Shown here piece by piece: positions 1-61,029 of a stretch of DNA of 64,000 bases. Under the pieces are notes generated by a model. It had not been told where the DNA came from. It searched no databases and worked only from the letters and a program-made list of their open reading frames with translations. This DNA is from an uncultured Rhodanobacter sp. GTDB taxonomy: Bacteria; Bacteroidota; Bacteroidia; Cytophagales; Hymenobacteraceae. The DNA is taken from assembly GCA_964657755.1 (NCBI GenBank), contig CAZZWL010000009.1, positions 239 to 64,238 on the forward strand, written 5' to 3'. Within the stretch, counting starts at the first letter, position 1. Every line of letters starts with the position of its first letter. A program made the position numbers and the translations under genes.

Positions 1-879
1 ATCGGCAACGACCCGCGCGGCTGGCTGCCCGTGGTGGACCCCACCCAGCGCGAAACGATGCTCTCGCTGGGGGCTTTCGCGCAGCAGCTGGAATACGCCG
101 CCGCCCACTTTGGCTACCAGTGCCGCTGGCAGGTGCTGGCCACTTCCTGCCAGGCCGCCGACGTGCTGGACGTGCGCCTCGAGCGCCGGCCCGGCCCCGC
201 CTACCCCGACCTGACCGCCCTGCTGGGCCGGCGCACCCTGCGCACAGGTTTCTCGGCCGTGCCCATTCAGCCCGCCGACGTGCAGCGGCTGACCGGCGCC
301 GAGGCCGCGCACTGCCACTTCCTACCCCCCGCCTCCGGGCCAGGGCGTTACCTGACGGCTACTACCCTGGCCGCCAACCAGCACCAGACCGCCCACGACC
401 CCGCCCAGCGCGAGCTGGCCCACTGGGTGCGCTGGGATGCCGCCGCCGTGCGGCGCCACCGCGATGGCCTCACCGCCGTCGGCATGGGCATTGAGGGGCC
501 CGCTGGCTGGCTGGTGCGGCATTTTTACGACAGTGCCCGCGTGCTCACGCCCGGCTTTCGGGCGCGCGGCCTCACGCAGGTGGCCGACCAGCTGGCCACG
601 CACGGCGGCTGGCTCGTCATCACCAGCCCCGATGAGTCGGTGACCGCCCTGCTGGCAACCGGCCGGCGGCTGGCGCGCATCTGGCTGCGGGCGAGGGCGT
701 TGAATATCGCCATTCATCCCATGACGCAGGGCCTCGAAGAAACGCCGGGCCCGGCCGGCCTGGGCCAGCGCCTGGGCCTGGGCGCGCCCGTGCAGTTTGT
801 GCTGCGCCTGGGCTACGTCGAAGGCTACGCTGCCCCCGTGAGCCCGCGCCGCCCCGTCGAGTGGTTTGTCCGGGCCTAG
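1..879 (+). CDS. Acg-family FMN-binding nitroreductase-like protein (5' end outside window)
   Basis: Frame is open from base 1. The C-terminal segment TGRRLARIWLRARALNIAIHPMTQ...QFVLRLGY...SPRRP is typical of Acg/nitroreductase proteins. Confidence 0.75.
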   Translation: MGNDPRGWLPVVDPTQRETMLSLGAFAQQLEYAAAHFGYQCRWQVLATSCQAADVLDVRLERRPGPAYPDLTALLGRRTLRTGFSAVPIQPADVQRLTGAEAAHCHFLPPASGPGRYLTATTLAANQHQTAHDPAQRELAHWVRWDAAAVRRHRDGLTAVGMGIEGPAGWLVRHFYDSARVLTPGFRARGLTQVADQLATHGGWLVITSPDESVTALLATGRRLARIWLRARALNIAIHPMTQGLEETPGPAGLGQRLGLGAPVQFVLRLGYVEGYAAPVSPRRPVEWFVRA

Positions 880-897
880 GGTGGGGTAGGGAGCGGC

Positions 898-911
898 CTG
901 ACAAACGTCAT
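898..911. promoter_or_regulatory. FNR/FixK-like palindromic box upstream of the BON gene
   Basis: cTGAC-aaac-GTCAt matches TGA(T/C)-N4-(A/G)TCA. Confidence 0.45.
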
Positions 912-1035
912 GCTTTCGGTAGCTTATCGTCAGGGCAGGGGCGGGTGGGCGCGGCGACTTTTGCGGTTGCCTTCCCGCTCGCTAGTGCAGTAGGGGCGCC
1001 ACCGCCGATTTCTCCCCCATTTCCGGATAAGTACC

Positions 1036-2463: not shown

Positions 2464-2560
2464 GCCGGCCCCTACCCCCTCGCCGCGGCCCAGGCCCCTG
2501 CGCCAAGGTGGCGCGGCCCGCTACTGCCCGCGCCGGTTTCACTTTTTTTACCCCTGAGCC

Positions 2561-3403
2561 ATGCCCGCTTCCCTGGTTGTGCTGACCGATTTTTACGCCG
2601 TTTCCAACCGCGCGCTTTCCTACGCGGCGGGGCTGGCCGTGCCGCTGGGTGCCCACTTGGTGCTGCTGCACGCGCGCCACGACGAGCTGCTGGCCCCCGC
2701 CGACTACGGCGACAGCTACCAAACCTGGCGCAGTGACCAAAAAACGACTTATGCGCTGCGAAAGCTGGCCACCGACCAGCCCGTGCCCACCGAGATAGCC
2801 GTGTCGGAAGACTCCCTGGCCGGGGCCGTGCGCGAGGCCGGCCAGCACCAGGCGCCGCTGCTGGTGGTGCTGGCCCGGCCCGACCCGGCCGTGGCTTCCG
2901 CGGAGCTCGTGGTCAGCACGGCCATGCGCCTGCTGCGCCGCGCGCCCTACCCCCTGTTGCTGGTGCCCGCCACCGGCTGGGATGCCGCCCCGCCCCGCCG
3001 CCTGCTGCTGGCCGTAGATGGCCAGCCGTTTCGCCTGCGCCCGCACCAGGACCTGCTGCGCCGGCTGCTGGCGGCCACCCAGGGCACGCTCGACGTGGTG
3101 CACGTGGTAGTGGAGGAAACCGCGCAGCATAGTCTGGCCCCGGTGTGGGAAACGGTGAGCGCAAACAACTTGGTGGACTCCCTGGCCGAGGGCAGCCTGC
3201 ACCAGCTGTACCAAATCACGGCAGTAGCTGGTATTTTGGAGGAGGCTGCCCGCCATCAGGCCGATATGCTGGTAGTCGTGGCCCGGCCCCACAGCCTGTT
3301 CGGCCGGCTATTTCACGCGAGCGTGACGGCGCAAATCCTGCGCGAAAGTCCCATTCCGGTGCTCATCCTGCTGGCCACAGCGCCGGGCCAGCCCCTTGGC
3401 TGA
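2561..3403 (+). CDS. Universal stress protein (tandem USP domains)
   Basis: LVVLTDFYAVSNRALSYA start, LLLAVDG second domain, and HSLFGRLFHASVTAQILRESPIPVLIL end. Confidence 0.9.
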   Translation: MPASLVVLTDFYAVSNRALSYAAGLAVPLGAHLVLLHARHDELLAPADYGDSYQTWRSDQKTTYALRKLATDQPVPTEIAVSEDSLAGAVREAGQHQAPLLVVLARPDPAVASAELVVSTAMRLLRRAPYPLLLVPATGWDAAPPRRLLLAVDGQPFRLRPHQDLLRRLLAATQGTLDVVHVVVEETAQHSLAPVWETVSANNLVDSLAEGSLHQLYQITAVAGILEEAARHQADMLVVVARPHSLFGRLFHASVTAQILRESPIPVLILLATAPGQPLG

Positions 3404-3574
3404 CGGTTGCTGCCAGCAGGGGGGGTAGGGAATGTCCGGCAAGCTGCCGGCTGGCCAGGTTTTTCATTTTTTTGCGGTCGCCGGTGGCTCTTACTCGGAA
3501 CCTGCTACCTGGCTCCCGCGCTGGTGCGGGTAGCCGCCGCTGCTGGCCCCGTAGGCCCCGCGCCCCTTGCTGCT

Positions 3575-5747: not shown

Positions 5748-5901
5748 TTGGCGCGGGTGCGCGCGTGGGTGCCGCCACTAGCTGTGCCGGGGCAGTACGG
5801 CCTCCAAAAGGGGGGTAGGGGGCCCTAGAAAACCCGCCCCGCCTAGCGGGCGCGGCACGAGTGGCACAACACAAGATTACGCCGGTCCTGAAGCAGCCCC
5901 T

Positions 5902-6658: not shown

Positions 6659-6997
6659 CTACCCGGCGGGGGGTAGGGCGAGCCGGGCCAGCAGCTGCGC
6701 CACGATAAACTCGCCTTCGGGCAGGCCCTGCTGGCGCCACAGCTCCACGCCGCGCCGCACCAGCACGAACGCCGGTAAATCGAGCGGCGAGAAACTGTGC
6801 ACCACCACCGGGTGGCTGCCCTCGTCCACCGCGAGCACCCGCACGGCGCCTCCCAGCTGCTGCTGCAACACCCGAAGCGCCGCCAGCGTGGCCGCCCGCA
6901 CGGGCTGGGCCGTGCCCACGGGCGGCAGCAGCACCAGCAGCACCGCCGCCTCGGTGGCCGGGGGAGCGATAGGGACGGGGGGGGTAGGCGAGGGCAT
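6659..6997 (-). CDS. Thioredoxin-like fold protein without CxxC
   Basis: VRVLAVDE...LPAFVLVRRGVELWRQQG resembles the thioredoxin C-terminal half; the ORF has no cysteines. Confidence 0.55.
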   Translation of the reverse strand: MPSPTPPVPIAPPATEAAVLLVLLPPVGTAQPVRAATLAALRVLQQQLGGAVRVLAVDEGSHPVVVHSFSPLDLPAFVLVRRGVELWRQQGLPEGEFIVAQLLARLALPPAG

Positions 6998-8197: not shown

Positions 8198-8974
8198 TCA
8201 AATGAAAAAGTCGTGGACCTTCGGGTCGGGGTTCGCGCTCAGCTCGGCGTAGGTGCCTTCGGCGTAGCAGCGGCCGTCGGCGAGTAGGGCCACGCGGTCG
8301 GCGGTGAGGCGCACGCAGGCCAGGTCGTGGGAGATAATGAGGGCCGAAGTGTTATATTTCTTCTGCACCTCGCGGATGAGGTGGTCGATTTCGCGGCCCG
8401 TAATAGGGTCGAGGCCAGTGGTGGGCTCATCATATAGGATAATGTCGGGCCGCAGGATGAGCGTGCGGGCCAGCGCGATGCGCTTGCGCATACCACCCGA
8501 GAGCGCGGCGGGCAGCAGCGCGGCGGTGTTGGCCAGGCCCACGTCTTCGAGGGCCTGCTGCACCAGCTCGGTTTCCTGGGCGGGGGTGTGGGCCAGCCAC
8601 TGGCGGCGCAGCGGGAAGAGCAGGTTTTCGCGCACCGTCATGGAGTCGTAGAGCGCATTGCTTTGGAAGAGGAAGCCCAGCTTGGTGCGCAGCCGGTCGA
8701 GGCCGGCGTGGTCGAGGGTGCCCACGTCCTGGCCCAGCACCGTGATGGTGCCCGCATCGGGCCGCAGCAGGCCGATGATGCACTTGATAAGCACCGACTT
8801 GCCCGCGCCCGACTTGCCCAGCACCACAATGTTTTCGCCCCGGTTCAGCTCCAGGGAAAAGTCTTGCAGCACGTGGTTCTCGCCAAACGCCAGGCTGATG
8901 CCGGCCACCGTCAGCACGGCCTCGGCCCCGGCGGGCGGGGTAGCAGCGGGGGCCGGGGCCGGGGTAGGAAGCAT
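8198..8974 (-). CDS. MlaF-type ABC transporter ATP-binding protein
   Basis: Walker A GKSGAGKS, signature LSGGMRKR, Walker B ILYDEPTTGLDP. Confidence 0.93.
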   Translation of the reverse strand: MLPTPAPAPAATPPAGAEAVLTVAGISLAFGENHVLQDFSLELNRGENIVVLGKSGAGKSVLIKCIIGLLRPDAGTITVLGQDVGTLDHAGLDRLRTKLGFLFQSNALYDSMTVRENLLFPLRRQWLAHTPAQETELVQQALEDVGLANTAALLPAALSGGMRKRIALARTLILRPDIILYDEPTTGLDPITGREIDHLIREVQKKYNTSALIISHDLACVRLTADRVALLADGRCYAEGTYAELSANPDPKVHDFFI

Positions 8975-10091: not shown

Positions 10092-11702
10092 ATGCTGCCT
10101 ACCCCCTATACCACGGTGCTCGCCGACCTGCTGTACACCCATGCGCGGGAGTTTGTGGGTATCTACGACGTGGCCCTGGGGTGGTTTACGCAGGTAAACC
10201 CCACGGCGGTGCAGCTGCTGGGCTACGCTTCGGAAGAAGAATTTCTGGCCGACCCCGACCACTCGCTGCGCACCCCACCCTGGACGGTGACCGAGTGGCG
10301 GGCGCTGTGCGAGCTAACCCAGCGCGAGGGCCACCACGAGGTAGAAACCGACATCCGGCGGCACACTGGCGAGCCGTTTCGGGCCTACCTGCGCCTGGTG
10401 TATTTCGAGATGAAAGGCCACCCCACCCTGCTGGTGTGCCTCACCGAGCACAGCCCCCTGCAACGGGCCGAGCGCGCGCTGGCCCACAGCGTGCGGCGCT
10501 TCGAGGCCGTGTTTACCAACGCCACCATCGGCATTATCGTCTGCGACAAAGTCGGTATCATGTTGTCGGCCAATGGGTTAGCGGGCGAGCTGTTTGGCTA
10601 CCCGCCGGCCGCGCTGCTGGGCCAGCGCATCGAGGTGCTGGTGCCGGCCGCCACCGGTCGCCACCACGAGCACCTGCGGGCGTCGTTCAACGCCGACCCG
10701 CAGGTGCGCAGCATGGGCGCGCACCGCGCCTTGCAGGGCCAGCGCCTCGACGGCTCCGTGTTTCCGGTCGAAGTCAGCCTGAGCTATTTTTACCTCGATG
10801 AGGAGCTGTATGTAGTGGCCTACATCCTCGATACCTCCCTCAAAAAAGCGGCCGAGCAGGAGCTGCGCGACCAGCACCAGCACGTGGCGCGCCTCAACGC
10901 CGACCTCGAGCAGAAGGTGGCCGACCGCACCCACGCCCTGCTCAACACCCTGGAGCAGCTCGAAAAGCGCGGCCAGGAGCTGGCCCTGGCTCTGGCCGCC
11001 GAGCAGGAGCTGGGCGAGCTGAAGTCGCGCTTCGTGAGCATGGCCTCGCACGAGTTTCGCACCCCGCTCACGGCGGTGCTCACCTCGGCCACGCTCATCG
11101 GCAAATACCCCGGCGGCGACCAGCAGGCCCAGCGCCTGCGGCACCTGGAGCGCATCAACACGTCGGTTAACCACCTGAATGCCATCCTCGAAGAGTTTCT
11201 GTCGGTGGGCCGCATCGAGGAAGGCAAGGTGGAAACGCACCCCGCCACCTTCGACCTGAACACGCTGCTGACCGAAACCCTGGCCGACGTGCAAAGCCTG
11301 CGCAAGCCCGGCCAAACCATTGTGCAGCAGGTGGCGTGTCCCGACCCGTTTCGCCTCGACTCGTCGCTGCTGCGCAAAATCCTGGTCAACCTGCTTTCCA
11401 ACGCCCTCAAGTATTCGGGCGAAAACGCGGCGGTTACCGTGCAAGCCACTTGTCATGACAACCAGCTGATAATCAAGGTGCAAGACCAGGGAGTTGGGAT
11501 TTCCAAAGAAGACCAGGCGCATTTGTTCGAGCGTTTTTTTCGGGCCCGCAACGTCAGCACCGTGCCCGGCACCGGGCTGGGGCTCTACATCATTGCCCGC
11601 TACCTGGAGCTGATGGGCGGCACCATCGACCTGCAAAGTGCACTGGGCCAAGGCACTACCGTTACTGTCACCATTCCCTATGAAAACCATTCTGCTGATT
11701 GA
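10092..11702 (+). CDS. PAS-PAS sensor histidine kinase (second PAS FixL-like)
   Basis: PAS with LVP...RHHEHLRASF...MG...G.RLDGSVFPVEVSLS; H-box MASHEFRTPL; NLLSNALKYS; DQGVGI; GTGLGL. Confidence 0.9.
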   Translation: MLPTPYTTVLADLLYTHAREFVGIYDVALGWFTQVNPTAVQLLGYASEEEFLADPDHSLRTPPWTVTEWRALCELTQREGHHEVETDIRRHTGEPFRAYLRLVYFEMKGHPTLLVCLTEHSPLQRAERALAHSVRRFEAVFTNATIGIIVCDKVGIMLSANGLAGELFGYPPAALLGQRIEVLVPAATGRHHEHLRASFNADPQVRSMGAHRALQGQRLDGSVFPVEVSLSYFYLDEELYVVAYILDTSLKKAAEQELRDQHQHVARLNADLEQKVADRTHALLNTLEQLEKRGQELALALAAEQELGELKSRFVSMASHEFRTPLTAVLTSATLIGKYPGGDQQAQRLRHLERINTSVNHLNAILEEFLSVGRIEEGKVETHPATFDLNTLLTETLADVQSLRKPGQTIVQQVACPDPFRLDSSLLRKILVNLLSNALKYSGENAAVTVQATCHDNQLIIKVQDQGVGISKEDQAHLFERFFRARNVSTVPGTGLGLYIIARYLELMGGTIDLQSALGQGTTVTVTIPYENHSAD

Positions 11703-13711: not shown

Positions 13712-13966
13712 TTACTTCTTTACGCGCCGTGGGCGGGATGGGAGCCCTATATCAGCAGGCTTGCTTTTTTGCACCATTTTCTGGCCCAGGGCTTTGCTGT
13801 CCTCCGTCACTTTGGGGCCTTGGTAGGTCGCGGCGCGGTGGTCAGCCGCTTTGGTCGGCTTGGGGGGGGTAGGGTTGTCGTGGGGCGTGGCCGGCGCTTG
13901 GGCCTGCGCGGTGCCGAGCAGGGCGCCGAAGCCTAGGAGTAGGAGTAGGAGGGGAAGAGTTTTCAT
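13712..13966 (-). CDS. Small secreted hypothetical protein (paralogue B)
   Basis: Signal peptide ending AQAQ; ADHRAATYQGPKV...KALG..M...SKPA. Confidence 0.75.
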   Translation of the reverse strand: MKTLPLLLLLLGFGALLGTAQAQAPATPHDNPTPPKPTKAADHRAATYQGPKVTEDSKALGQKMVQKSKPADIGLPSRPRRVKK

Positions 13967-44646: not shown

Positions 44647-44703
44647 GGGGGTAGGGCGTGGTGGCCGCCCTCCCCGCAAAAATAGGGAGCGCCCGGCCGC
44701 GGG

Positions 44704-45174: not shown

Positions 45175-45288
45175 AAAAAACGGGGTAGGAAAAGTAAACG
45201 CGCGTCGGCTACCTTCTTGCCAATTAGCGCGTAAGGTTCGGGCCAACTAATTAATTCCAGGTGAGGAGCCGCAAAAAACGGTGACAGG

Positions 45289-45511: not shown

Positions 45512-47071
45512 CTATTTCTCAAACGGATTGCCGGGTACTACCAGCACCACGCGCTCCCGCTCGACCAGCACCTGGCCGGGTAGCGAACCCTTGGGCTTGC
45601 GCACAAATTTCTTGGGCGTCACCGTCACCGGGCACAGCGAGTCGTGCTGGCGGCGCGAGTACCAGCCCGCCAGCTGCGCCGCATGCTCCACCACCGGCTC
45701 GGGCACCGGCTGCCCCGCCCGGTGCCGAATGACCACGTGCGAGCCGCTCACGTCCTTGGCGTGCAGCCACAGGTCGTCTTTATGCGCGTATTTCTGGGTT
45801 AGCAGGTCGTTATTCTGCGCGTTGCGCCCCACCAAGATGGTAAAGCCCTGGTCCTCAAATACCTTGAACGGCAGCTCAGTAGCCGCCTTGGCGAGGGGGG
45901 TAGGGTCGAGGGCGTGCAGCTTGCGCCAGGCGCGCAGGCCGCGCAGCTCGGCCAGCGCGGGTTGGGTATCCAGCTCCTCCAGCAGCTCGAGGGCTTGCAA
46001 GGCTTCCGCCTCGCGGCCGGCTACCCGGCCTTGCAGCTGGCGCTCCTCAATTTGCTGGTTCTTGGCTTTGCGGTACAGGTTTTCGGCGGTACGCTGGGGC
46101 TTTTCGAGCGGCTTCAGTTTGAGCACCACCGGCTCATTGGTATAAAAATCTATTACCTCCACCTGGGCCGCGCCCGGCGCAATGGTGTGCAGATTGGCCA
46201 TAATCAGGTCGGCGCGGTGGCGGTAGCCCGCCTCGTGGGCCAGCGCGTGCAGGCGCTGGCCCGCCAGGTGCGCGCTGGTGCTGGCCTCGTCGGCGCGGCG
46301 CGTCAGCAGCTGGCGCAGCTGGCGGCGCTCAGTTTCGAGGGCGCGGCGGGCCAGCGCCAGCGGCACGAAGCGCCGCAGCGCGCCAATGGGGTCAGCACCG
46401 GGCAGCGTATCGAGCACTTCGCCCAGTGCCACCAGGCTCAGGCGCGTTCGCCCGTCGAGGTAGATGATATAGTAGTGCGCCGGGCTCTCCAGCTCCGCGA
46501 GTAGTTCGGTGGCGAGCTGCTGCTTTAGCGCGGCCGGGGCTGGGTCATAGCCGCGCTGCTCGCGCAGGAAGCGCGCCGGCAGGTCGGCCAGCGCGGGCGG
46601 CAGCTTGCCGGCTTCGCCAATAACCAAGGGGGTAGGGGCCGCCGGCACCAGGTCGGCATCGGTGGCGTAGCGCTGGTGAAATAGCTGGGCCGCCGCCGGG
46701 CCAGGCCGAAAAATAGCGTTCGGCCGCGGGCCGTACAGCTTGAAAACCAGCGTGGCGGCGTCCTCCACAAACGTAAATTGCAGCACCCTGTCCTGCGGCC
46801 ACGCCTCCACGCGGGCTACCGTGCGGCCCAGCAACTCGGGTAATAAATCCACTGAGTTTTGACGGGCCCGATGGAAGGACTCGGGTAGGGATAAAGCTGG
46901 GAAAGCCGCACCCAGTTGCGCTTTCAGCCAAAACTCGGCCCCGGCTTCGTTCAGCAAGCCCACCACCAGCTCATCTTTCTCCTGCGAAAAGCAGCTGGCC
47001 ACGCGGTAGCCCCGCAGCCGCTCGGTAAGGGCCGGGGCCAGCTGGCGCAGGAAATAGTAGTTGGTGTGCAT
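45512..47071 (-). CDS. NFACT (FbpA/RqcH-like) RNA-binding protein
   Basis: CFSQEKDEL N-terminus; NFACT-R domain ILVGRNAQNNDLLT...DLWLHAKDVSGSHVVI...AA.LAGWYS. Confidence 0.9.
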   Translation of the reverse strand: MHTNYYFLRQLAPALTERLRGYRVASCFSQEKDELVVGLLNEAGAEFWLKAQLGAAFPALSLPESFHRARQNSVDLLPELLGRTVARVEAWPQDRVLQFTFVEDAATLVFKLYGPRPNAIFRPGPAAAQLFHQRYATDADLVPAAPTPLVIGEAGKLPPALADLPARFLREQRGYDPAPAALKQQLATELLAELESPAHYYIIYLDGRTRLSLVALGEVLDTLPGADPIGALRRFVPLALARRALETERRQLRQLLTRRADEASTSAHLAGQRLHALAHEAGYRHRADLIMANLHTIAPGAAQVEVIDFYTNEPVVLKLKPLEKPQRTAENLYRKAKNQQIEERQLQGRVAGREAEALQALELLEELDTQPALAELRGLRAWRKLHALDPTPLAKAATELPFKVFEDQGFTILVGRNAQNNDLLTQKYAHKDDLWLHAKDVSGSHVVIRHRAGQPVPEPVVEHAAQLAGWYSRRQHDSLCPVTVTPKKFVRKPKGSLPGQVLVERERVVLVVPGNPFEK

Positions 47072-47586: not shown

Positions 47587-47627
47587 AAAACACCCGTCAG
47601 TTTAAGTCTTTCGCAATAACAGTCGCC

Positions 47628-48395
47628 CTACCCCTCCACCACCAGCCCATCGTAGGCCAGCCGCACCCAGGGGGGTAGGGTGGCCTCTACCTCGCGGTGG
47701 CGACCCAGCTGGTGGCTGATATGGGTGAGGTAAGCCCGGCGCGGCTTCAACTCCTCCAGAATAGCGACGGCCTCGCCCAAGGTGAAGTGTGAGATGTGTG
47801 GCTCGTGGCGTAGCGCGTTGAGCACGATGGTGTCGGCCCCGCGCAGCTGGTCCATCGTACTGTCCGGCAGCTGGTTAGCATCCGTCAGGTAAGCCAGGCC
47901 ACCGATGCGGAAGCCCAGCACGGGCAGCTTGTAGTGCAGGGCGCGCAGCGGCTGCACGGCTAGGCCCAGCATCTCAAACGGCTGCTGGTCGTCGGTGATG
48001 GGGTGCAGGCTCACTTGCGGCACGCCGGGGTACTTATGCTCGGTAAAAACGTAGGCAAATTCCTGTTTAAGCTGGGCCAGCACTCGGGGCTCGGCAAAAA
48101 CGGGCATTTCCTGCTGCTGCCGAAAGTTGAAGGCCCGCACGTCATCGAGACCCGCCGTGTGGTCTTTGTGCTCGTGCGTGAACAGGATACCGTCGAGCCG
48201 GCTGATGTGGGCGCGCAGCATTTGCTGCCGGAAGTCAGGACCCGTATCAATCACTAGGCTGCGGCCGGCTACCTCCAAATGCACTGATACGCGCAACCGC
48301 TGGTCGCGAAAGTCGAGCGAGCGGCACACCGGGCAGGAGCACCCTATCATCGGCACTCCCGACGAAGTACCCGTGCCCAAAAAAGTAAGTTTCAT
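47628..48395 (-). CDS. MBL-fold metallo-hydrolase (PhnP-like)
   Basis: FLGTGTSSGVP.IGC.C.VC, IDTGPDFRQQ, THEHKDH.AG.DD, SHF, THISH. Confidence 0.92.
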   Translation of the reverse strand: MKLTFLGTGTSSGVPMIGCSCPVCRSLDFRDQRLRVSVHLEVAGRSLVIDTGPDFRQQMLRAHISRLDGILFTHEHKDHTAGLDDVRAFNFRQQQEMPVFAEPRVLAQLKQEFAYVFTEHKYPGVPQVSLHPITDDQQPFEMLGLAVQPLRALHYKLPVLGFRIGGLAYLTDANQLPDSTMDQLRGADTIVLNALRHEPHISHFTLGEAVAILEELKPRRAYLTHISHQLGRHREVEATLPPWVRLAYDGLVVEG

Positions 48396-48977: not shown

Positions 48978-51900
48978 TTATTCAATAGCGGCAAGTATGG
49001 CTGGATACTGGTTAACAAACTGCTCAAATAGCTGCCCCAAATCGGCCAAACCCTTAGTCAGAGAATCAGTTTCCCGATTCTTGATGGCTTGCTCCAGCGC
49101 CAGTGCTTTAGCAGCCAGGTGGGTAAGACCCAGCGTGCCCGCCGTCCCCTTTAGCTGATGAAAGAATGGGTGCAGGCCGTCGAGGTTTTCCTCGGCCCAG
49201 CAGGCATTGGCTTGTGCGAGGAGGGTAGTCGTTTCTTCCACAAACTCGCTGTAGAGCTCCGCGGCAAACCCATCGCCGCCTAACTGGTGCAGCTGCGCCA
49301 GCACTTCGGGGTCGATGATGGCGGGGGGGGTAGGGGCGGCCACTTCGGCAAGTGGCCGCGGGCCATTGACCCAGCGGGCCAGGGTTTCGGCTAGCTGCTG
49401 GTGCTTCACGGGCTTAGCCAGGTAGTCATCGAGACCGGCTTTCACGAAGCGCACCGCATCATCGGGCATCGAATAGGCCGTCATGGCTACGATAGGCGGG
49501 CTCGCCGCCCCCAATTGCGCCTTGATGGCGCGGGTGGCGGCAATGCCGTCGAGGCCCGGCATTTGAATGTCCATCAGGATGAGCTGGTAGGCGGCATTCG
49601 GGGCCGTGGCGCGGGCAATGGCTTCGTAGCCATCGCTGGCTACTTCAACGTGGCAGTTGAGTTTGGCCAGCAGGCGAGCCGCCACCTTTTGGTTGATGGC
49701 GTTGTCATCGACGAGTAATATCCGGGCTGCTTCGCCAGTAAATGCAGCATCGGTGAAGGGAGCGGCGGGAGGAGTCGGGAGCGCGGCCGGTGCGGGGGCC
49801 GGGTCGGCCGTAAGTACCTGGCACCGAATGGTAAACCAGAAGACGCTGCCCTCGCCGGTATTGGAAAGCACCCCGATAGTGCCCCCCAGCAGCTCCGCCA
49901 ATTCCTTGCTGATGGCCAGGCCCAGCCCCGTGCCACCATAAGCCTTGCTGGGGGTAGTATCGAGCTGCGTGAAACTGGTGAACAGGCGGGCCGCATCATT
50001 GGGCGAAATACCAATGCCCGAATCCTGCACCGCAAACCGCAACGTACAATACTCGCCTTCCGTGCGCACCAGCGAGGCTACCACGTTTACCGTGCCCTGC
50101 ACCGTAAACTTGATGGCGTTGGCCACCAAGTTGGCCAGAATCTGGAGAAGCCGCGTTTCGTCCGTAACGATAAACGTCGGAGTTTCCGGCGTAACGAGGT
50201 AGTTGAAGCGAATATTTTTCTGGTTGGCTCGGTAGGAGAACAGCGCGCTCAGGCGGTCGAGTAGCGGCACCAGCGCCAGCGGCGCTTCGTGCAGGCGCAT
50301 CTTACCAGCCTGAATCTTCGACAGGTCTAGAATGTCGTTCAGAATGGTGAGCAGGGCCTCGGAGCTCGTGCGCAGCGTATCAACATAGTCGGCCTGCTCA
50401 GTATTGAGGATGGTTTGGCCCAGCAGGTCAATCATCCCAATAATACCGTTCATGGGCGTACGCAGCTCGTGGCTCATATTGGCCAAAAACTGCGTTTTCG
50501 CATCGGAGGCGGCTTCTGCCTCTTCCTTAGCCAAGCGCAAGTCGTCCTGAATGCGCCGAATCTCGGTGATATCGCGCACAATGCCTTCGGTGCCGAAAGC
50601 AGTGCGGCGGGCATTCACGAGCACGCTTACGGCATGGCCGTCGTGGTGGCGCAACTGCGTCTCAAAGTTGCGCAGTTCCCCGTGCTTACGCAACTCAACC
50701 AGCAAATTTCTGTGCTGCTCAGGCTGCAGATACACGTGGTCAATGGGGTAGTTCAGCGCTTCGGTAGGGTTATAGCCGAGCACTTCCCGCACCGACGGAC
50801 TCAGGATGGTAAAGCGTCCTTCGCGGTCAGTGCGGTAATAAATGTCTTGGAAAGACTCAAATATGGAGCGAAATTTTTCTTCCTGCGCTGCCAACACCAA
50901 CTGCGAGTTTTTTGTAGCGGTGATATCCTGTGCCTGCGCCGTAATCTCCTCAAATGAACCGTCGGGCAAATATATAGGAGCCAGCGAAACGTTTAGCCAC
51001 ACATCAGGACCTCTGCTCCTACGTAGCGCGACTTCAAACTGTTGCGCCTCGCCCCGGCTGGCTGCCTGGTAGCTGCTGCGAAACAATGTGCGGGTTCCTT
51101 CCTCGGTAAGGGCAATATCCGACTCTATAAGATTGAGACCCTGGGTAGGCAGCGCGCCATTACGGTGCAGGTAAAAGTCAGCGTAGTTGCGGTTAAACGA
51201 TACCAGATAGCCACTCCGGTCTACGTTCCACATGAGCTGATTGCCGCTCTCAAAAATGGCGTTGAGGCGGGCGTTCTGGAGTGCCAGGTGTTCTTCTTGT
51301 CGCTTGCGGTCGATGGCCAGCGCTACCTGGCCCGAAATGAAGTGCAGAATATCGAGGTCGGCGGGCGTGTACAAGTCGGCCCGGTCGTATTCCTGCACCG
51401 CCAGCACCCCGATAGTGCGGTCGCCCACGCTCAGCGGCGAAGCCAGCAGCACGGCCGGCAGGCGGCCAAATGCCGTGAGTTCACCGGTTCGCATCAGGCG
51501 CAGCAAATCGGCCTTGGTAAAGTACAGCGGCTGCCCTTGCTCAATAACGTATTCGGTCACGCCCATCGAGAAAGGCCGCCCATCGCCCTGCTCAAAGTAG
51601 GCGTGCTGGTCCACGTAGTACACGAACTGCAGCTCCGTGCGGGCATCGTCGCAGAGCGAGATAAAAATATTATTCGTTTCGATAACCTTGCCCAGTTCGC
51701 GGTGAATAGCGCCGTAGAGAGCGGGTAGGTCGTGGGCCGAAATGGCCAGGTTGGCAATGCTATAGTAGACTTTTTGCAGGCGCTCGGCTTTAATACGGTC
51801 CGTAATGTCGTGCAGCACGGCCCGGGCGCTGGGCAGGCGGCCGGGCTGCTGCTCGCTGCTCACCGAGCCGATGAGGTGCACGGGCCGGCCCGCCTTGGTT

Positions 51901-52650: not shown

Positions 52651-53868
52651 TTGTATTCCTGCGTGCCCAAATTAGTTGACCGGCCGCGGCCACACCTCGT
52701 GGTAGCGGTTACCACCGACCTCAGCTACGACCAGCGGATGCAGCGCATTTGCGGCAGCCTGGCGCGGGCCGGCTACGTAGTGCAGCTGGTGGGCTGGCAG
52801 CGCCCGGCCTCGGTGCCGCTGGCCTCGCAGCCCTACGCCCAGCACCGGCTGCGGGGGTGGTTTCAGCACGGAAAGCTGTTTTATCTCGAATATAACCTGC
52901 GGCTGCTGAGCTATTTGCTGCGCCAGCGGGCCGCCGCCTGGGGGTGCGCCGACCTCGACGCCGCCCTACCCATCTGGCTGCGGGCCAGGCTTGGTAGCCA
53001 GCCGTTTGTGTACGACGCCCACGAGCTTTTTACGGAAGTGCCCGAAGTGGTGGCCCGGCCCCGCGTGCAGCGCGCGTGGCAGTGGGTAGAGAATTTTATT
53101 GTGCCCCGCGCCCAGCTGCGCTACACCGTGGGCCCGGCGCTGGCGCGGCTTTTTGAGCAGCGGCACCCCGGCTGCCCGTTTGCCGTGGTGCGCAACGTGG
53201 CGCTGGCCCCGCAGGGGGGGGTAGGGGCCGGCGCCCTCGCCGCTGCCAGCGGCACCGTGGGCCCCGTCGCCGCGCCCGCCCCGGCCACGTTGCTCTATCA
53301 GGGAGCCCTCAACGTGGGTCGGGGCCTGGCCGAGCTGCTGGCGGCCATGCCGCAGGTGCCGGCCCGGCTGGTAATCTGCGGCGAGGGCGACTGCTCGGCG
53401 GCCCTGCGGGCGCAGGCCGCGCGGCTGGGGCTACTGGCGGCGCCGCCTACGGTGGGGCAGGTCGAGTTTCGGGGCTACGTGCTGCCCGCTGTGCTGCGGG
53501 TGCTCACGGCCCAGGCCACGGTGGGCATCATGCTGCTCGAAAACACGGGCCTGAGCTATTACTACTCGCTGGCTAATAAGTTCTTCGACTACGTGCAGGC
53601 CGGTATTCCGCAGCTGTGCGTCGATTTTCCGGAGTACCGCGCCCTCAACGCGCAGTATGAGGTGGCCGTGCTGGTGCCCGACCTGGCGCCCGCTACGCTG
53701 GTGGCTGCCCTGGCCCGGCTGCTGCCGGCCGGCCGGCCCGGCCCCTACTACGAGCGGCTGGCCGCCAACTGCCGCCGCGCCCGTGCCGAGTGGAGCTGGC
53801 AGCAAGAAGAAAAAAAGCTGGTTCAGCTCTACAATGACTTGCTGGGAGTAGAGCCGGAAAAAGGGTAG
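52651..53868 (+). CDS. Glycosyltransferase (GT4/GT-B)
   Basis: VTTDLSYDQRM.RI, YDAHELF.E, LYQGALN.GRGL, NKFFDY..AG.P. Confidence 0.88.
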   Translation: MYSCVPKLVDRPRPHLVVAVTTDLSYDQRMQRICGSLARAGYVVQLVGWQRPASVPLASQPYAQHRLRGWFQHGKLFYLEYNLRLLSYLLRQRAAAWGCADLDAALPIWLRARLGSQPFVYDAHELFTEVPEVVARPRVQRAWQWVENFIVPRAQLRYTVGPALARLFEQRHPGCPFAVVRNVALAPQGGVGAGALAAASGTVGPVAAPAPATLLYQGALNVGRGLAELLAAMPQVPARLVICGEGDCSAALRAQAARLGLLAAPPTVGQVEFRGYVLPAVLRVLTAQATVGIMLLENTGLSYYYSLANKFFDYVQAGIPQLCVDFPEYRALNAQYEVAVLVPDLAPATLVAALARLLPAGRPGPYYERLAANCRRARAEWSWQQEEKKLVQLYNDLLGVEPEKG

Positions 53869-53963: not shown

Positions 53964-54887
53964 ATGTTACCTCCCGAAATACTGTCCCGCCCGGCACCGA
54001 CCCCCGCCGATGCGCGCCCCGTGCTGCTGGCCGTGGCCGGCCCCACCGCCGTGGGCAAAACGGCACTCACTGTGGCCCTGGCCCAGCAGCTGGGCACGGA
54101 AATAATATCGGCCGACTCGCGCCAGTTCTTTCGCGAAATGAGCATTGGCACCGCCAAGCCTACTTTGGCCGAGAGGCAGGGGGTAGGGCACCACTTCGTT
54201 GATTCGCACAGCATTACGGAGGACTATAGCGCCGGCCGCTTCGCGGCTGAAGCGGAGGCGCGGCTGGCCCGGCTGTTTGAAAAGCACGCCGTGGTTATCG
54301 CCACGGGCGGCTCGGGGCTGTACTTGCAGGCCCTCACCGATGGCCTCGACGAGCTGCCCGCCGTGCCGCCCGCCGTGCGCCAGCAGCTACGGCACGAGCT
54401 GCAAACCCACGGCCTACCCCCCTTGGTGGCCGAGCTGGCGCGCCTCGACCCCGTGGCCCACGCCCGCCTCGACCTGCAAAACCATCAGCGCGTGCTGCGC
54501 GCCCTGGAAGTGACGCGCGGTACCGGCCGGCCGTTTTCCAGCTTTCACCAGGGGCCGGCGGCCTTGGCGGCTACTGCGGCGGCCCGGCCCTGGCGCGTAG
54601 TGAAAGTGGCCCTGACCCGCCCCCGCGAAGAGCTTTACCAGCGCATCGACCAGCGCGTACTGCACATGCTCGACGCTGGGCTGGTGGCCGAGGTCGAAGC
54701 GCTACTGCCCTACCGCCACCACCAGGCGCTGCAAACCGTGGGCTACCAGGAAATATTCGGCTACCTCGACGGGGCCTATGCCTACGCCGAGGCCGTGCGC
54801 CTGCTCCAGCGCAACACCCGCCACTACGCCAAGCGCCAGCTCACCTGGCTCCGCCGCGACCCAGGCTACGCTTGGGTCGAATTATGA
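53964..54887 (+). CDS. miaA: tRNA dimethylallyltransferase
   Basis: GPTAVGKT, SADSRQ, IGTAKP, GGSGLY, TVGYQE, TRHYAKRQLTW. Confidence 0.97.
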   Translation: MLPPEILSRPAPTPADARPVLLAVAGPTAVGKTALTVALAQQLGTEIISADSRQFFREMSIGTAKPTLAERQGVGHHFVDSHSITEDYSAGRFAAEAEARLARLFEKHAVVIATGGSGLYLQALTDGLDELPAVPPAVRQQLRHELQTHGLPPLVAELARLDPVAHARLDLQNHQRVLRALEVTRGTGRPFSSFHQGPAALAATAAARPWRVVKVALTRPREELYQRIDQRVLHMLDAGLVAEVEALLPYRHHQALQTVGYQEIFGYLDGAYAYAEAVRLLQRNTRHYAKRQLTWLRRDPGYAWVEL

Positions 54888-56738: not shown

Positions 56739-57921
56739 CAGTGCCAATGGCGCGCAGCAGCCCAGCCAGCGCCGCGTCAATCTCGGCCTCGGTGATGGTG
56801 AGCGGCGGCGCGATGCGCAGCGAGTTGTCGCAGAATAAAAACCAGTCGGTCAGGATACCTTCCTCGGCCAGGGCGCGGTCGATAATGGGCTTTAGCACCT
56901 CAAACGAGTCGAATTCCACGGCCATCAGCAGGCCGCAGTTGCGCACCGCCCGGATGGCCGGGTGCCGCAGCCCGGCGCGCAGGCGCGCCGCCTTGGCCGC
57001 CACGTCCGCCAGCAGGTTTTCTTCCTGAATAACCTGGAGCGTGGCCAGCGCCGCCGCGCAGCTCACCGGGTGCCCGCCGAAGGTGGTGCAATGCCCCAGA
57101 ATCGGGTTGGTCTGGAAACCTACCATAATCTCGGGCGACGAGATGAAGGCCCCAATCGGCATGCCGCCGCCCATGCCCTTGGCGCACACCAGGATGTCGG
57201 GCACCACCCCAAACTGCTCGAACGCCCACTGCGTGCCCGTGCGCCCAAAGCCGCACTGAATCTCATCCAAGATGAGGAGCGCGCCTACCTCGGTGCAGCG
57301 CGCCCGCACGGCGGCTAGGTAGCCGGGCAGGGGTAGGCGCACGCCGGCCTCGCCCTGCACGGTTTCGAGCACCACGGCGGCCGTGTGCTTGGTAATTAAC
57401 GCTAAGTCGGCCAGCTCGTTATAACGCAGGTGCGTCACGTCGGGCAGCAGCGGCCGGTAGCTGTTCTTGAACCCCTCGGAGCCGGTGATGGACAGTGCCC
57501 CGTGCGTGGAGCCGTGGTAAGCCTGGAGAGCCGACACCAGGCCCGTGCGGCCGGTGTGGCGCTTGGCTAGCTTGAGCGCGCCCTCAATGGCCTCGGTGCC
57601 CGAGTTAGTGAAGTACACCGTGTCGAGCGGGGGGGGTAGGGTGGCGGCCAGCGCGTGGGCCAGCCGGGCGGGCGGGGCCTGCACCAGCTCGCCGTACACC
57701 ATCAGGTGCAGGTATTTATCGAGCTGGTCCTGAATGGCTTGCAGCACCCGCGGGTGCCGATGCCCCACGTTGCTGACCCCGATGCCCGAAATTAAATCCA
57801 GGATGGGGCGGCCTTCCGGCGTGTACATATACACGCCCTCGGCCCGCTCAATTTCCAGCAGCAGCGGAAAATCGGACGTTTGGGCCTGGTGGCGGAGAAA
57901 AAGCTGGCGGGGCGTAAGCAT
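56734..57921 (-). CDS. Class III PLP-dependent aminotransferase (ArgD-like)
   Basis: DLISGIGVS.VGH, FTNSGTEA.EGA.KLA, YHG, E.VQGE.G, DEIQCGFGRTG, AKGMGGG. Confidence 0.93.
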   Translation of the reverse strand: MLTPRQLFLRHQAQTSDFPLLLEIERAEGVYMYTPEGRPILDLISGIGVSNVGHRHPRVLQAIQDQLDKYLHLMVYGELVQAPPARLAHALAATLPPPLDTVYFTNSGTEAIEGALKLAKRHTGRTGLVSALQAYHGSTHGALSITGSEGFKNSYRPLLPDVTHLRYNELADLALITKHTAAVVLETVQGEAGVRLPLPGYLAAVRARCTEVGALLILDEIQCGFGRTGTQWAFEQFGVVPDILVCAKGMGGGMPIGAFISSPEIMVGFQTNPILGHCTTFGGHPVSCAAALATLQVIQEENLLADVAAKAARLRAGLRHPAIRAVRNCGLLMAVEFDSFEVLKPIIDRALAEEGILTDWFLFCDNSLRIAPPLTITEAEIDAALAGLLRAIGTV

Positions 57922-57967
57922 AACGCCCGCAAAGGTACCGCCGGCGCCGGGGAGGGGGTAGGGCCAG

Positions 57968-58456: not shown

Positions 58457-58474
58457 AGCAAGTAAGTAAAGGGG

Positions 58475-58927: not shown

Positions 58928-58957
58928 GAACAGTAGATGGAAAAACAGACCAAAAGT

Positions 58958-59530
58958 TTAATCCGCTTCGTCGGTGAAAGGGCCCAGGTCGTCGGCGGTA
59001 GTGACGTATTCCTCGACTTTGCGGGCGGCGTGGTGGTAGCTGGCTTTCAGGGCGCCCACGCTGGTGCCCGTCACCTCGGCCATCTGCTCGTAGGGCATCT
59101 CGTCGTAGTAGCGCAGGTTGAACACCAGCCGCTGTTTGTCGGGCAGCCGCAAAATGGCCCGTTGCAGCTTCAGCTCAATCTCGTCGCCGGCCACGGCGGG
59201 GTCGGCCTCCAGCTTGGCCGCCAGCTCGGCTCCCACGTCGTTGAGGGGTAGGAAAAATTTGCGCCGCTTGCTCTGCAAAAAGCTCAGGCACTCGTTGGTC
59301 GCGATGCGGTAAATCCAGGTGAACAGCTGGGCATCCTGCCGAAAATTATCCAGGTTTTTCCACACCTTCACGAACACGTCCTGCGTCAGGTCGTCGGCAT
59401 CATCGTGGTCCACCACCATCTTGCGCACGTGCCAATACACCTTCTGCTGATACTTGCGTACCAGCTGGTTAAAGGCCAGGTTGCGACTGGCCGGCTCGTG
59501 AAACTTAGCGAGGATTTCGTGGTCTTCCAA
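58958..59530 (-). CDS. ECF RNA polymerase sigma factor
   Basis: DADDLTQDVF.K.W, FTWIYRIATNE, LPDKQRLVF.LRYY..M.Y, GALKASYHHA. Confidence 0.94.
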   Translation of the reverse strand: MEDHEILAKFHEPASRNLAFNQLVRKYQQKVYWHVRKMVVDHDDADDLTQDVFVKVWKNLDNFRQDAQLFTWIYRIATNECLSFLQSKRRKFFLPLNDVGAELAAKLEADPAVAGDEIELKLQRAILRLPDKQRLVFNLRYYDEMPYEQMAEVTGTSVGALKASYHHAARKVEEYVTTADDLGPFTDEAD

Positions 59531-59607
59531 ACGCGGAATGGGGGCGATTGTGCGGGTTGGACGCCGGAAGGGGGGTAGGGTTTAACGCGCTGCCTGGTAC
59601 GGCTAGC

Positions 59608-61029
59608 TCACCGCCCAAAAATGCTCAACGAAGTCGTCTGCGCCGAGCGAACGGTGAAGTTGCGCACGTCCGTAAACTTGCTGCCGTTGCTGGTGGCCGT
59701 GCGAAAAACCAGCCGGTACGCGCCCGGCTGCATCGCCAGGTTGAGCTTGCTGCTGCTCTCGGGCAGGTTATAAATCCAGGTCTGCGACTCGTCGTCGTTG
59801 AGCTTGTAAATGCTGCCGAAGCCCTTCAAATCGGAGGTAATATTGAGCGTGCCCGGCGCGGCGTAGCTCACGGTAGCGGTCTGGCCCTGGTGCACGGTCA
59901 CGCGCTCGATGCTGCGCGGCAGCGTCAGAATTTCTACTTCGTAGGTGCCGGCCAGCAGCTTCTGGCGGCTGCCAAAGGGTAGGGATAGCCCGGTAGCCGG
60001 GCTGCCCGCCGCTCGCACCACCGCCTGCACCGCCCCGCCGTAGGGGTTAGGCGAGATATTGGCCGGCTGCAAGTGTAGCGTACCCTGCGGCGTCTTGAAG
60101 TTCAGGACGTTGGTGCGGCCCGCCTTGATGGGAATATTGGCCTGCCGAATGGCGGGCACCGTGTTGATAATGAGGTCGTAGCTCTGCAGCGCGTCGATAT
60201 CGACCACGTCGGCCTTGCCCTGGGCGTCGCGATAGTGCACGTAGTTGTACTCCGGCTGCCCGGTCACGTTATTCACAAACGTCATGTTCACGTTTGACTC
60301 CACGGGTCGGCCGGCTTCGTCGGTCAGGTTCACGGCCACGCTGGTTTTGGCCAGCGTCTGGGCAATCACGTCGTTGAGCACCGTCTGGAAAGTCTTGACC
60401 TCGGCCGCGTTGTAATACTTACCCAGGCATTCGAGCGAACGCCCAAAGTCCTTCTCCGCCCCAATCCCAATCACGAACGGCTTCAAAAAAACGCGCTTGC
60501 GCTGCAACGCCAGCGACGCCGCGCAGGGGTCGCCCTTGCACGACTCTACCCCGTCGGTGATGAGCAGCAGCACGTTGCGCGAGGTTTTATCCTGCGGAAA
60601 GTCCTTGGCCGACTGCTCCAGCGAGTACGTAATGGGCGTGTTGCCCTGCGCCTTCAGCGTCTTGAGCCGCGCCTTGATGGCGGCCGCATTCTTAGGCGCA
60701 AAGGGCACTTCGAGGCGCGAGTCCTCGCAGTTTTGCTCGGCATTGGGGTGCTGGTGGCCGTACACGCGCAGTCCGAGCTCCAGGTTGGGGTAGGCGTTGA
60801 GCGAGTCGGCCATCTTGGCCAGCAAGCGCTTAGCCACCTCCCAGCGCGGCTTGCCTTCCCAGGGCGCCATCATCGAGCCCGACGCGTCGAGCAGAAATAG
60901 AATGCGCGTGACCTTGGGCTTCTCCGGCGGTGCGTTCTGCGCCCGGCCTGGCAGCGTAGAAAATAATAGCACGCAACCCAGCAGTAAGCGGATTGCATAA
61001 GCAGCAAAAGGTCTGAGCGGGAATAACAT
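59608..61029 (-). CDS. Secreted vWA-domain protein
   Basis: FLLDASGSM MIDAS, GNTPI, LITDG.E.C.GDPC. Confidence 0.88.
   Translation of the reverse strand: MLFPLRPFAAYAIRLLLGCVLLFSTLPGRAQNAPPEKPKVTRILFLLDASGSMMAPWEGKPRWEVAKRLLAKMADSLNAYPNLELGLRVYGHQHPNAEQNCEDSRLEVPFAPKNAAAIKARLKTLKAQGNTPITYSLEQSAKDFPQDKTSRNVLLLITDGVESCKGDPCAASLALQRKRVFLKPFVIGIGAEKDFGRSLECLGKYYNAAEVKTFQTVLNDVIAQTLAKTSVAVNLTDEAGRPVESNVNMTFVNNVTGQPEYNYVHYRDAQGKADVVDIDALQSYDLIINTVPAIRQANIPIKAGRTNVLNFKTPQGTLHLQPANISPNPYGGAVQAVVRAAGSPATGLSLPFGSRQKLLAGTYEVEILTLPRSIERVTVHQGQTATVSYAAPGTLNITSDLKGFGSIYKLNDDESQTWIYNLPESSSKLNLAMQPGAYRLVFRTATSNGSKFTDVRNFTVRSAQTTSLSIFGR

Follow-up and report, generated by a model that had tools for sequence, protein, structure and literature searches.

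The origin and upkeep of hyper-abundant short motifs, such as highly iterated palindrome 1 (HIP1), uptake signal sequences (USS), DNA uptake sequences (DUS), and Chi, has been an open question for many years. Since all relatives carry the motif in the classical systems, comparing them says little on how it arose. Known Chi sequences are G-rich and non-palindromic, and for Chi sites of the AddAB type a density of about one per kb lies within the usual range. The FtsK-orienting polar sequences (KOPS) of E. coli have the consensus GGGNAGGG, occur about once per 10 kb, and are approximately 80–90% skewed, most strongly near dif. The DUS of Neisseria and the USS of Haemophilus reach a density of the same order as one per 1.17 kb. 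For abundance, conservation, and motif replacement, the closest published parallels are the papers on HIP1, which in cyanobacteria is replaced by "alternate HIPs" (PMC4390886, PMC5861425). We analyzed a 64-kb stretch of DNA (hereafter the window; contig C9, positions 239–64238) from a 5.63-Mb Hymenobacter draft genome (G000; 287 contigs, 62.1% GC). The element studied here is the G-rich octamer GGGGTAGG (CCTACCCC on the opposite strand). Our best reading is that it is a replication-oriented, polar, G-rich signal of the Chi/KOPS class with USS/HIP1-like abundance, and not a DUS-like uptake sequence. No description of the motif was found in the searchable literature, and none of uptake specificity or competence in Hymenobacter either.

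Abundance, coding imprint, and replication polarity of the motif

The window contained 58 exact copies of the octamer, with the G strand on the + strand in 38 copies and on the - strand in 20. Dinucleotide-preserving shuffles of the window gave a mean of 2.66 copies and a maximum of 9. A preliminary description of this DNA had counted about 50 copies by hand against about 4 expected, and its claim of a highly iterated octamer held in the exact count. It had placed the copies between 200 and 60794. The start was right (200–207), and the last copy lies one copy further out (61569–61576).

In the whole genome, GGGGTAGG occurred 4,831 times, or once per 1.17 kb, which is approximately 13 times the zero-order expectation. 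It was the second commonest 8-mer; the commonest, GGGGGTAG (4,963 copies), overlaps it. The essential core was GGGTAGG (6,084 copies), and single-base variants at core positions were near the low baseline of G-rich words. More than half of the cores (3,601 copies, 59%) were part of GGGTAGGG. The full motif can be written as G(4-7)-TA-G(2-4), with G6-TA-G3 as the most frequent form, and the 10-mer GGGGGTAGGG had 2,323 copies, 67 times the zero-order expectation. The observation that the octamer is often extended by extra G's was therefore correct. Past the G runs the flanks were flat, with no extended conserved sequence around the copies. G-rich words other than the motif were under-represented, and the reversed control word GGGATGGGG was found 14 times versus 3,001 times for GGGGTAGGG, making it approximately 200 times rarer.

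Crude gene calls made for this analysis gave 3,840 genes (79% coding, with over-extended start codons). By these calls, 1,291 copies were intergenic, 2,619 had CCTACCCC on the coding strand (antisense), and 832 had GGGGTAGG on the coding strand (sense). Copies looked approximately twofold over-abundant in the first tenth of genes, which was set aside as a probable artefact of the over-extended start codons. The coding frames observed were CCT-ACC-CCN (Pro-Thr-Pro), C-CTA-CCC-C (x-Leu-Pro), CC-TAC-CCC (x-Tyr-Pro), GGG-GTA-GGN (Gly-Val-Gly), and xGG-GGT-AGG (Gly-Arg). All reading frames were occupied but the one with an in-frame TAG (1 case). The three peptide imprints read earlier from the window, Pro-Thr-Pro, Leu(CTA)-Pro, and Gly-Val-Gly, were thus all found genome-wide.

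Codon-preserving shuffles, which had been proposed as a check on the motif, did not remove the enrichment. When synonymous codons were shuffled within genes, CCTACCCC was observed 2,598 times versus 316 expected (8.2-fold) and GGGGTAGG 823 times versus 28 (29.6-fold); the 10-mer was enriched 22- and 187-fold. Shuffling the codon order left enrichments of 11-fold (CCTACCCC) and 59-fold (GGGGTAGG). A maximal-order Markov model gave an observed/expected ratio of just 1.17, and this test was dropped because its sub-words (7-mers) are the same nested motif, which makes the ratio uninformative. The proteome was changed as well. Pro-Thr-Pro was over-represented 4.1-fold (1,277 versus 311, or about 1,000 extra tripeptides), whereas Pro-Ser-Pro was over-represented only 1.2-fold. 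CCT-ACC-CCN coded for 77% of Pro-Thr-Pro versus 3.9% expected by codon usage, and GGG-GTA-GGN coded for 62% of Gly-Val-Gly versus 1.9% expected. CCC came next after 22% of all CTA leucine codons. Over all frames, the octamer was present at 3,418 of the 7,483 coding positions with a permissive peptide (46%). The motif is a DNA-level signal and no by-product of codon or peptide usage.

Polarity was analyzed on the complete chromosome (5.14 Mb) of another species of the genus, G049. Up to 1.70 Mb, 85 of the 120 copies of the 10-mer had their G strand on the + strand, compared with 15 of 65 at 1.76–2.72 Mb. Within the 400 kb around the change, the core GGGTAGG flipped at about 1,718,742. Left of the flip the +:- ratio was 148:67 overall (23:42 in + genes, 92:15 in - genes, and 33:10 in intergenic DNA), and right of it 60:119 (6:52, 43:34, and 11:33, respectively). 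In percentages, the ratio was 69:31 overall (34:66 past the flip) and 77:23 in intergenic DNA (25:75 past the flip). The share of coding DNA on the + strand was only 0.55 on the left and 0.43 on the right, so gene orientation does not explain the flip. The intergenic GC skew turned from positive to negative at the same place, as is typical of a terminus, and the leading strand is then the one that carries the G strand of the motif. Control heptamers of equal G content (GGGCRGG) occurred at chance frequency and without bias (16:16 and 18:20 on the two sides). We estimated that a GC skew of about 0.02–0.03 would predict just about 56:44 for such a word. In genome G135, which begins with a dnaA-like gene, the intergenic copies in the first 100 kb were 21:6 on the + strand (78:22).

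A 200-nt spacer 3.2 kb from the G049 flip contained TTGTCTTATAA-TTTATA-TTATGTTAAGT, in which the XerD arm of E. coli dif was matched at 10 of 11 positions. Of the 165 genomes of the genus, 155 contained the 21-mer ATAATTTATATTATGTTAAGT at up to 2 mismatches, all but one of them in a single copy, whereas a reversed control gave 1 hit. For these reasons the 21-mer is very probably dif, the chromosome dimer resolution site. It lies at C1:1721947–1721967 in G049 and outside the window, at C66:26556–26576, in G000.

For the highly enriched genomes, polarity was assessed on individual contigs or short stretches. For G000, a two-orientation mixture model with gene-class offsets gave 60–64% for an unconstrained site (2ΔlogL 45–78), a weaker polarity than in G049 but a highly significant one. 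The contig that holds the window had 43:20 copies versus 32 expected on the + strand from gene orientation. The per-contig excess tracked the intergenic GC skew (rho 0.60, p = 5e-7). A negative correlation with an "orientation-balanced genic GC skew" was misleading; the intergenic GC skew gives a rho of +0.60. A first reading of the per-contig skew (24–72%) as a mere effect of gene orientation was overturned by the complete chromosomes. Coding strands are C-rich in both G000 and G049 (GC skew about -0.04 within genes); as a result, total GC skew follows gene orientation and masks the replication signal, and only the intergenic skew tracks replication.

The preliminary description had presented the octamer as uptake-sequence-like, a lineage-specific signal for DNA uptake, recombination, or nucleoid proteins. 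Its strand bias relative to the replichore, with the flip about 3 kb from the dif-like site, falls on the side of Chi and KOPS. The lineage-specific DNA-level signal stood, with a codon or peptide by-product excluded, and the uptake reading did not, given the replication polarity.

Upkeep of the copies and their patchy occurrence

A codon alignment was made of the PspC-domain gene of the window (18209–20878, - strand) and ten relatives. Point substitutions created the motif sites in this gene: CTG became CTA, CCC became CCT, and Ala or Glu gave way to Thr. No site arose by insertion. The gene, a PspC-domain/DUF2807 type, is a mosaic across species, and its alleles fall into two classes around alignment codon 535.

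Syntenic DNA of five relatives was aligned to the window. The motif-rich G062 (Hymenobacter sp. UV11; 86% nucleotide identity) kept 34 of 43 motif octamers (79%) versus 38% of other octamers, and the motif-rich G018 (78% identity) kept 12 of 24 (50%) versus 20%. The motif-poor G061, G041, and G072 (75–79% identity) kept 0 of 23, 1 of 33, and 1 of 28 motif octamers, respectively, versus 16–26% of other octamers. At the orthologous motif sites, motif-poor relatives carried ordinary preferred codons; of 84 comparisons at the TA position, 31 showed CA or TG and 26 showed TA. Shared sites could reflect common descent or convergence, either being possible given the near-saturated permissive sites. 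Genomes assembled independently, that of Hymenobacter sp. UV11 among them, carry the motif at orthologous positions, which excludes a homopolymer sequencing artefact, a caveat that had been attached to the octamer earlier. In G000, the one-step precursors GGGGCAGGG, GGGGTGGGG, and GGGGCGGGG were not depleted, indicating that a simple deamination sink is not the cause. By a flux estimate, such a "mutational sink" could give at most about a twofold excess, and this origin was rejected.

Along the genome, the spacing of copies was near Poisson and slightly over-even: gaps below 20 nt were at 0.44 of expectation and gaps of 2–5 kb at 0.77. Gaps above 5 kb were in excess (2.2-fold) and corresponded to foreign DNA. 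Intergenic density was alike in tandem, divergent, and convergent spacers (1.45–1.56 per kb). A minority of G-then-C inverted pairs formed terminator-like hairpins flanked by A and T runs. Several contigs of G000 held 0–0.2 copies per kb versus a median of 0.94. The motif-poor contigs include C24, with a Bacteroidota-type conjugative TraG and metal efflux, C6, with a baseplate-J protein and an MmeI-type restriction enzyme, and C1, with a helicase-PLD protein and a second MmeI-type enzyme. Nearly motif-free were C24, C6, C1, C18, C13, C59, C81, C86, and C87, several of which have a deviating GC content (48–59%). These nearly motif-free contigs are probably plasmids, integrative elements, or prophages. 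The motif is a practical marker for separating native from recently gained DNA, and when it is combined with the dif site, contigs can be oriented with respect to replication.

The genus was surveyed in 165 species representatives by counting the 10-mer GGGGGTAGGG. Eight genomes (G000, G018, G054, G059, G062, G116, G133, and G169) had 1,355–2,692 copies and eight further genomes had 113–562. The remaining genomes mostly had about 10–30 copies (40–90 in one group) versus about 5 for the reversed control word. Enrichment was thus patchy, in about 16 of 165 species, and came with G-run dialects. A shorter G-run dialect was found in all three sampled members of the eight intermediate genomes (G049, G135, and G100). 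In G049, GGGTAGG occurred at 1.4 per kb and GGGGTAGG at 0.5 per kb, with no preference for G further 5'. The density of GGGGTAGG was 0.5 per kb in G135 and 0.7 per kb in G100.

Five species without GGGGTAGG enrichment (G071, G072, G136, G150, and G164) carried 285–394 sites of the palindrome GGGCTAGCCC (core GGCTAGCC) per genome; an example region is C1:100001–200000 of G072. Elsewhere in the genus this palindrome had 0–31 sites, mostly fewer than 10, with 14 in G000. In G061 (C1:900001–1000000), CCTAGG words were over-represented 8- to 10-fold, and the observed/expected ratio (O/E) of CTAG was 1.34 versus 0.31 in the window; these words may constitute a third kind of motif within the genus. 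An accessory region of the motif-poor G071 (C5:200001–300000) held 10 of the 28 copies of GGGGGTAGGG in that genome and 0.34 copies of GGGGTAGG per kb. The region aligned to G000 over just 0–38% and looks like an import from a motif-rich lineage. A tree of the PspC-domain gene and a tree of 15.9 kb of concatenated neighboring DNA with motifs masked disagreed on how motif-rich and motif-poor species interleave. The conflict points to recombination between these species, and since the trees disagree they were dropped as a basis for counting how often the motif was gained or lost.

Other genera of the family had 20–100 copies of GGGGGTAGGG. In the four sister-genus genomes inspected, a small element resembling miniature inverted-repeat transposable elements (MITEs) carries the 10-mer within its terminal inverted repeat, GTCCCCCTTTGGAGGGGGTAGGGGGAGG. 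These elements are about 100–250 bp long with an internal CCCCC-TTTGGA-GGGGG hairpin, and the repeat is kept across genera (G177, G189, G191, G196, and G201). Even with up to 2 mismatches allowed, none of the 165 genomes of the genus to which the window belongs contained the 25-mer GTCCCCCTTTGGAGGGGGTAGGGGGAGG. MITEs and repetitive extragenic palindromic (REP) elements have extended conserved flanks and spread by insertion, and the motif studied here has neither feature. A MITE origin was rejected because the terminal repeat is absent from the genus, the flanks are flat, and the copies arise by substitution.

Relatives at 75–86% nucleotide identity thus differ sharply, carrying about 5,000 copies, a shorter dialect, another, palindromic motif, or none. 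The motif is strong enough to alter proteins, and the contrast between rich and poor species means that comparative genomics of the 165 species and simple biochemistry could directly address what drives or reads the motif, how fast it is gained and decays, and what it costs proteins.

Readings of the motif

All open reading frames of G000 were scanned with sequence signatures and Pfam for enzymes that might read or drive the motif. The scan yielded no more than a single C5 methyltransferase, which has Vsr next to it, and two enzymes of the MmeI type, all on motif-poor foreign contigs. The methyltransferase and Vsr genes lie at C6:51472–53122, and the two MmeI-type enzymes are 81% identical. 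Homologues of the MmeI-type enzymes were present in 101 of 165 genomes but not in the motif-rich G018. These type IIG enzymes were rejected as drivers, being widespread in the genus and absent from G018, and the C5 methyltransferase with Vsr was rejected because the sole pair is on a motif-free foreign contig. A crude signature scan of G000 showed no PilB/PilT-type ATPase or prepilin. RecC (PF04257) was absent from all 165 genus genomes, which rules out RecBCD as the reader; AddAB was not located, no search aimed at it having been made. The P-loop proteins that were checked were PriA, an ABC transporter, a rhodanese protein, and an FtsK/SpoIIIE-domain protein. The last one (1,632 aa), the only one of its kind found, is encoded on the foreign contig C87, and no gamma domain was seen in it.

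Hyper-abundance, exclusion from mobile DNA, upkeep at orthologous sites, and the polarity flip beside dif place the motif with Chi, KOPS, and architecture imparting sequences (AIMS) rather than with uptake sequences. Within this group, we give a probability of roughly 0.3 to a Chi-like site for a helicase-nuclease of the AddAB type, because the contrast between core and foreign DNA, the moderate skew, and the high density fit Chi. Like Chi (in E. coli GCTGGTGG, read by RecBCD, and elsewhere read by AddAB), the motif is a non-palindromic, G-rich word of 7–8 nucleotides with a species-specific sequence. It is over-represented in the core genome (8- to 30-fold over codon shuffles) and scarce in mobile DNA (0–0.2 versus 0.94 per kb). 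It also prefers the leading strand (about 60–77%), and its controls are unbiased. The conflicting gene trees, as signs of DNA exchange among these species, are consistent with Chi as well. On the Chi-like reading, G(3-7)TAGG(G) would be a mark of the cell's own chromosome, read directionally by a DNA-translocating machine. Linear DNA with a correctly oriented word would be spared degradation and routed into RecA recombination, and DNA without the word (phage, plasmid, or foreign) would be degraded. Extreme abundance would come from weak selection at thousands of sites together with a transmission advantage of motif-bearing alleles in exchange between relatives. What reads the motif, a biochemical effect like that of Chi, and the drive behind its amplification are all inferences.

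Several observations weigh against this reading. The motif is far more over-represented than Chi (about 13-fold over the zero-order expectation and about 200-fold over the reversed control word), near-saturates permissive codons, and visibly changes the proteome. We know of no Chi site for which near-saturation of permissive sites and a rewritten proteome have been reported. The reader protein was not found, RecBCD being absent from the genus and AddAB not searched for. Close relatives differ in whether the motif is hyper-abundant at all, and some sister species carry instead the palindrome GGGCTAGCCC, which is unable to act as an oriented signal. The near-Poisson spacing and the equal density across spacer types suit an independent per-site process as well as selection. 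Polarity in the window's own genome is just about 60–64%, and it was weak within 40 kb of dif on the two sides in G000 (13:8 and 1:2), G018 (17:12 and 24:23), and G062 (22:16 and 25:23), that is, 58–62% on one side and about 50% on the other. A further possibility, likewise held tentatively, is that the motif represents a new signal class, which combines the replication polarity of Chi and KOPS with the kilobase-scale hyper-abundance and proteome pressure of USS and HIP1. As part of the same tentative claim, its reader or driver would have been gained, lost, or re-targeted between sister species, giving G-run dialects of GGGGTAGG in some and GGGCTAGCCC in others. If so, the genus would be a natural experiment on the birth and death of such motifs.

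A KOPS-like role, in which the word would orient FtsK or another SpoIIIE-type translocase towards dif during segregation and hyper-abundance would be a lineage-specific addition, appears rather unlikely. The form GGGTAGGG fits GGGNAGGG, and the copies of G049 point from origin to dif, as do KOPS and AIMS, converging on the dif-like site from both sides and flipping within about 3 kb of it. In the motif-poor G041 and G061, in which the heptamer is at chance frequency, copies pointed to dif at 15:5 and 21:10; this would fit a genus-wide reader but, as no control word was run there, is only suggestive. However, the motif is roughly 10 times denser than KOPS and stands in both orientations inside genes in very high numbers. 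Its skew is just 60–77% overall and about 50–60% near dif in the three motif-rich genomes, not 80–90% with a peak near dif, and a housekeeping FtsK with a gamma domain was not located in G000, where the sole FtsK/SpoIIIE-domain protein is on a foreign contig. We regard as unlikely, too, a molecular ratchet of the HIP1 (GCGATCGC) kind, in which a sequence-specific, replication-coupled repair or modification process converts near-cognate sites and protects existing ones, so that the motif is the footprint of an enzyme. Per-site pressure with 46% saturation, near-Poisson spacing, and equal density in all spacer types speak for it, as do the hyper-abundance (0.9 per kb; HIP1-rich genomes are defined by an O/E above 16) and the conservation at orthologous sites. 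The turnover between close relatives and the palindromes of sister species (GGGCTAGCCC in five genomes, itself HIP-like, and the CCTAGG words of G061) resemble the swap to "alternate HIPs" (PMC4390886, PMC5861425). The patchy occurrence in lineages as distant as G049 and G000 suggests that the driver moves horizontally, and replication coupling could yield polarity. Yet the motif is polar and not palindromic, its precursors are not depleted, and neither a cognate methyltransferase nor another candidate enzyme was found by the signature scan and Pfam, apart from the C5 methyltransferase/Vsr and MmeI types confined to motif-free foreign contigs, the latter with no homologue in G018.

An uptake signal like DUS or USS (Pasteurellaceae) is improbable. 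A competence receptor would then prefer word-bearing DNA, and uptake with recombination would spread the word by molecular drive. The density of one per 1.17 kb, the occurrence in both orientations in genes and spacers with over-represented tripeptides, the dialects between species, the absence from foreign DNA, and the occasional inverted pairs in terminator-like hairpins, few as they are, would all agree with this. Within Bacteroidota, Riemerella columbina prefers its own DNA in transformation, and the phylum may use other competence machinery (PMC7965970). However, the motif-specific replication polarity that flips at dif is foreign to DUS and USS, and an extracellular uptake receptor would not create it; the crude scan showed no competence pilus genes, and the literature searched held no competence paper on Hymenobacter and no transformation evidence in the genus. 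More improbable still is a site that is selected for chromosome structure and bound by an abundant nucleoid-associated or replication protein, for example for priming or loading on the lagging-strand template. At about 1 kb, the spacing is on the order of Okazaki fragments and slightly over-even (2–5 kb gaps at 0.77 of expectation), and the G strand on leading-strand sequence corresponds to the lagging-strand template. On the other side, 23–40% of copies have the "wrong" orientation, no candidate protein is known, and close relatives manage without the motif. The absence of any signal, with the copies arising from composition, as a codon or peptide by-product, from homopolymer artefacts, or from small mobile elements, is already refuted. 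The low maximal-order Markov ratio (1.17) and the 10-mer in the MITE-like terminal repeat of other genera might be cited for it, but codon-preserving shuffles leave an 8- to 187-fold excess, the reversed control word is about 200 times rarer, the flanks hold no extended conserved sequence, the MITE terminal sequence is absent from the 165 genus genomes, and the sites arise by substitution in alignable genes and recur in independent assemblies.

Positions of the copies and minor observations

Table 1. Exact copies of GGGGTAGG in the window, with the strand of each copy and its state in related genomes
Position	Strand	Remark
200–207	-	exact match
321–328	-	exact match
883–890	+	exact match
2471–2478	-	exact match
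2946–2953	-	exact match
3422–3429	+	exact match
5812–5819	+	exact match
6670–6677	+	exact match
6981–6988	+	exact match
8961–8968	+	exact match
10098–10105	-	exact match
13866–13873	+	exact match
14297–14304	-	exact match
16657–16664	-	identical octamer at orthologous site of G018 and G062
17865–17872	-	kept in G018 and G062
18604–18611	+	PspC-domain gene, ACC CTA CCC (Thr-Leu-Pro); kept in G018, G059, and G062; CTG in motif-poor relatives
19926–19933	+	PspC-domain gene, Pro-Thr-Pro-Pro; kept in G062
20247–20254	+	PspC-domain gene, Ala-Pro-Thr-Pro; kept in G018 and G059; Pro-Ala-Pro or Pro-Glu-Pro in relatives
20538–20545	+	PspC-domain gene; common to G018 by codon alignment, unmatched by BLAST-based comparison
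21405–21412	-	kept in G062
22499–22506	+	kept in G018, G062, and G072
23913–23920	-	not shared
25662–25669	-	kept in G018 and G062
26827–26834	-	one-off GGGGTAAG in G018 and G062
27715–27722	-	kept in G062
29034–29041	+	kept in G062
29971–29978	+	kept in G018
30168–30175	+	kept in G018 and G062
30520–30527	+	kept in G018 and G062
32221–32228	+	kept in G062
32383–32390	+	kept in G062
35088–35095	-	one-off variant in G062
36168–36175	+	kept in G062
36439–36446	+	not shared
36480–36487	+	kept in G062
38209–38216	-	one-off variant in G062
39605–39612	+	kept in G062
40747–40754	+	kept in G062
41508–41515	-	kept in G062
42685–42692	-	kept in G018 and G062
43098–43105	+	kept in G018 and G062
44648–44655	+	kept in G062
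45182–45189	+	kept in G062
45897–45904	+	kept in G062
46629–46636	+	kept in G018 and G062
47627–47634	-	C-then-G inverted pair with the copy at 47672
47672–47679	+	not shared with G062
49327–49334	+	kept in G062
53218–53225	+	exact match
54180–54187	+	kept in G062
54413–54420	-	kept in G062
57330–57337	+	kept in G062
57633–57640	+	kept in G062
57955–57962	+	kept in G062
59245–59252	+	kept in G062
59572–59579	+	kept in G062
60787–60794	+	kept in G062 and G041
61569–61576	+	past the end given in the preliminary description

The isocitrate dehydrogenase gene of the window (62065–63330, - strand) belongs to a type that only two other Hymenobacter records share, namely sp. UV11 (98%) and sp. UYCo722 (94%). 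The next matches, at 70–80%, were from Persicobacter, metagenome-assembled genomes of other Bacteroidota, and Bacillales. This pattern suggests that the gene was horizontally acquired. As a foreign-type gene common to just two Hymenobacter strains, it was dropped as a phylogenetic marker.

A separate 35-nt repeat with the consensus AAAAGAACGTCATGCTGAGCTTGnCGAAGCATCTC had 279 copies across G000 and also yielded the top Markov-excess 8- to 10-mers AAGCATCT, TCATGCTGA, and TGCTTCGACA. A link between this repeat and the G-rich motif was rejected, as their association was no more than chance. In the window, the top z-scores belonged to the AT-rich words AATTAATT, TAATTAAT, and TTAATTAA, at 70–90 times the zero-order expectation. 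Their counts were 14–18 each in a both-strand tally that scores every palindrome occurrence twice.

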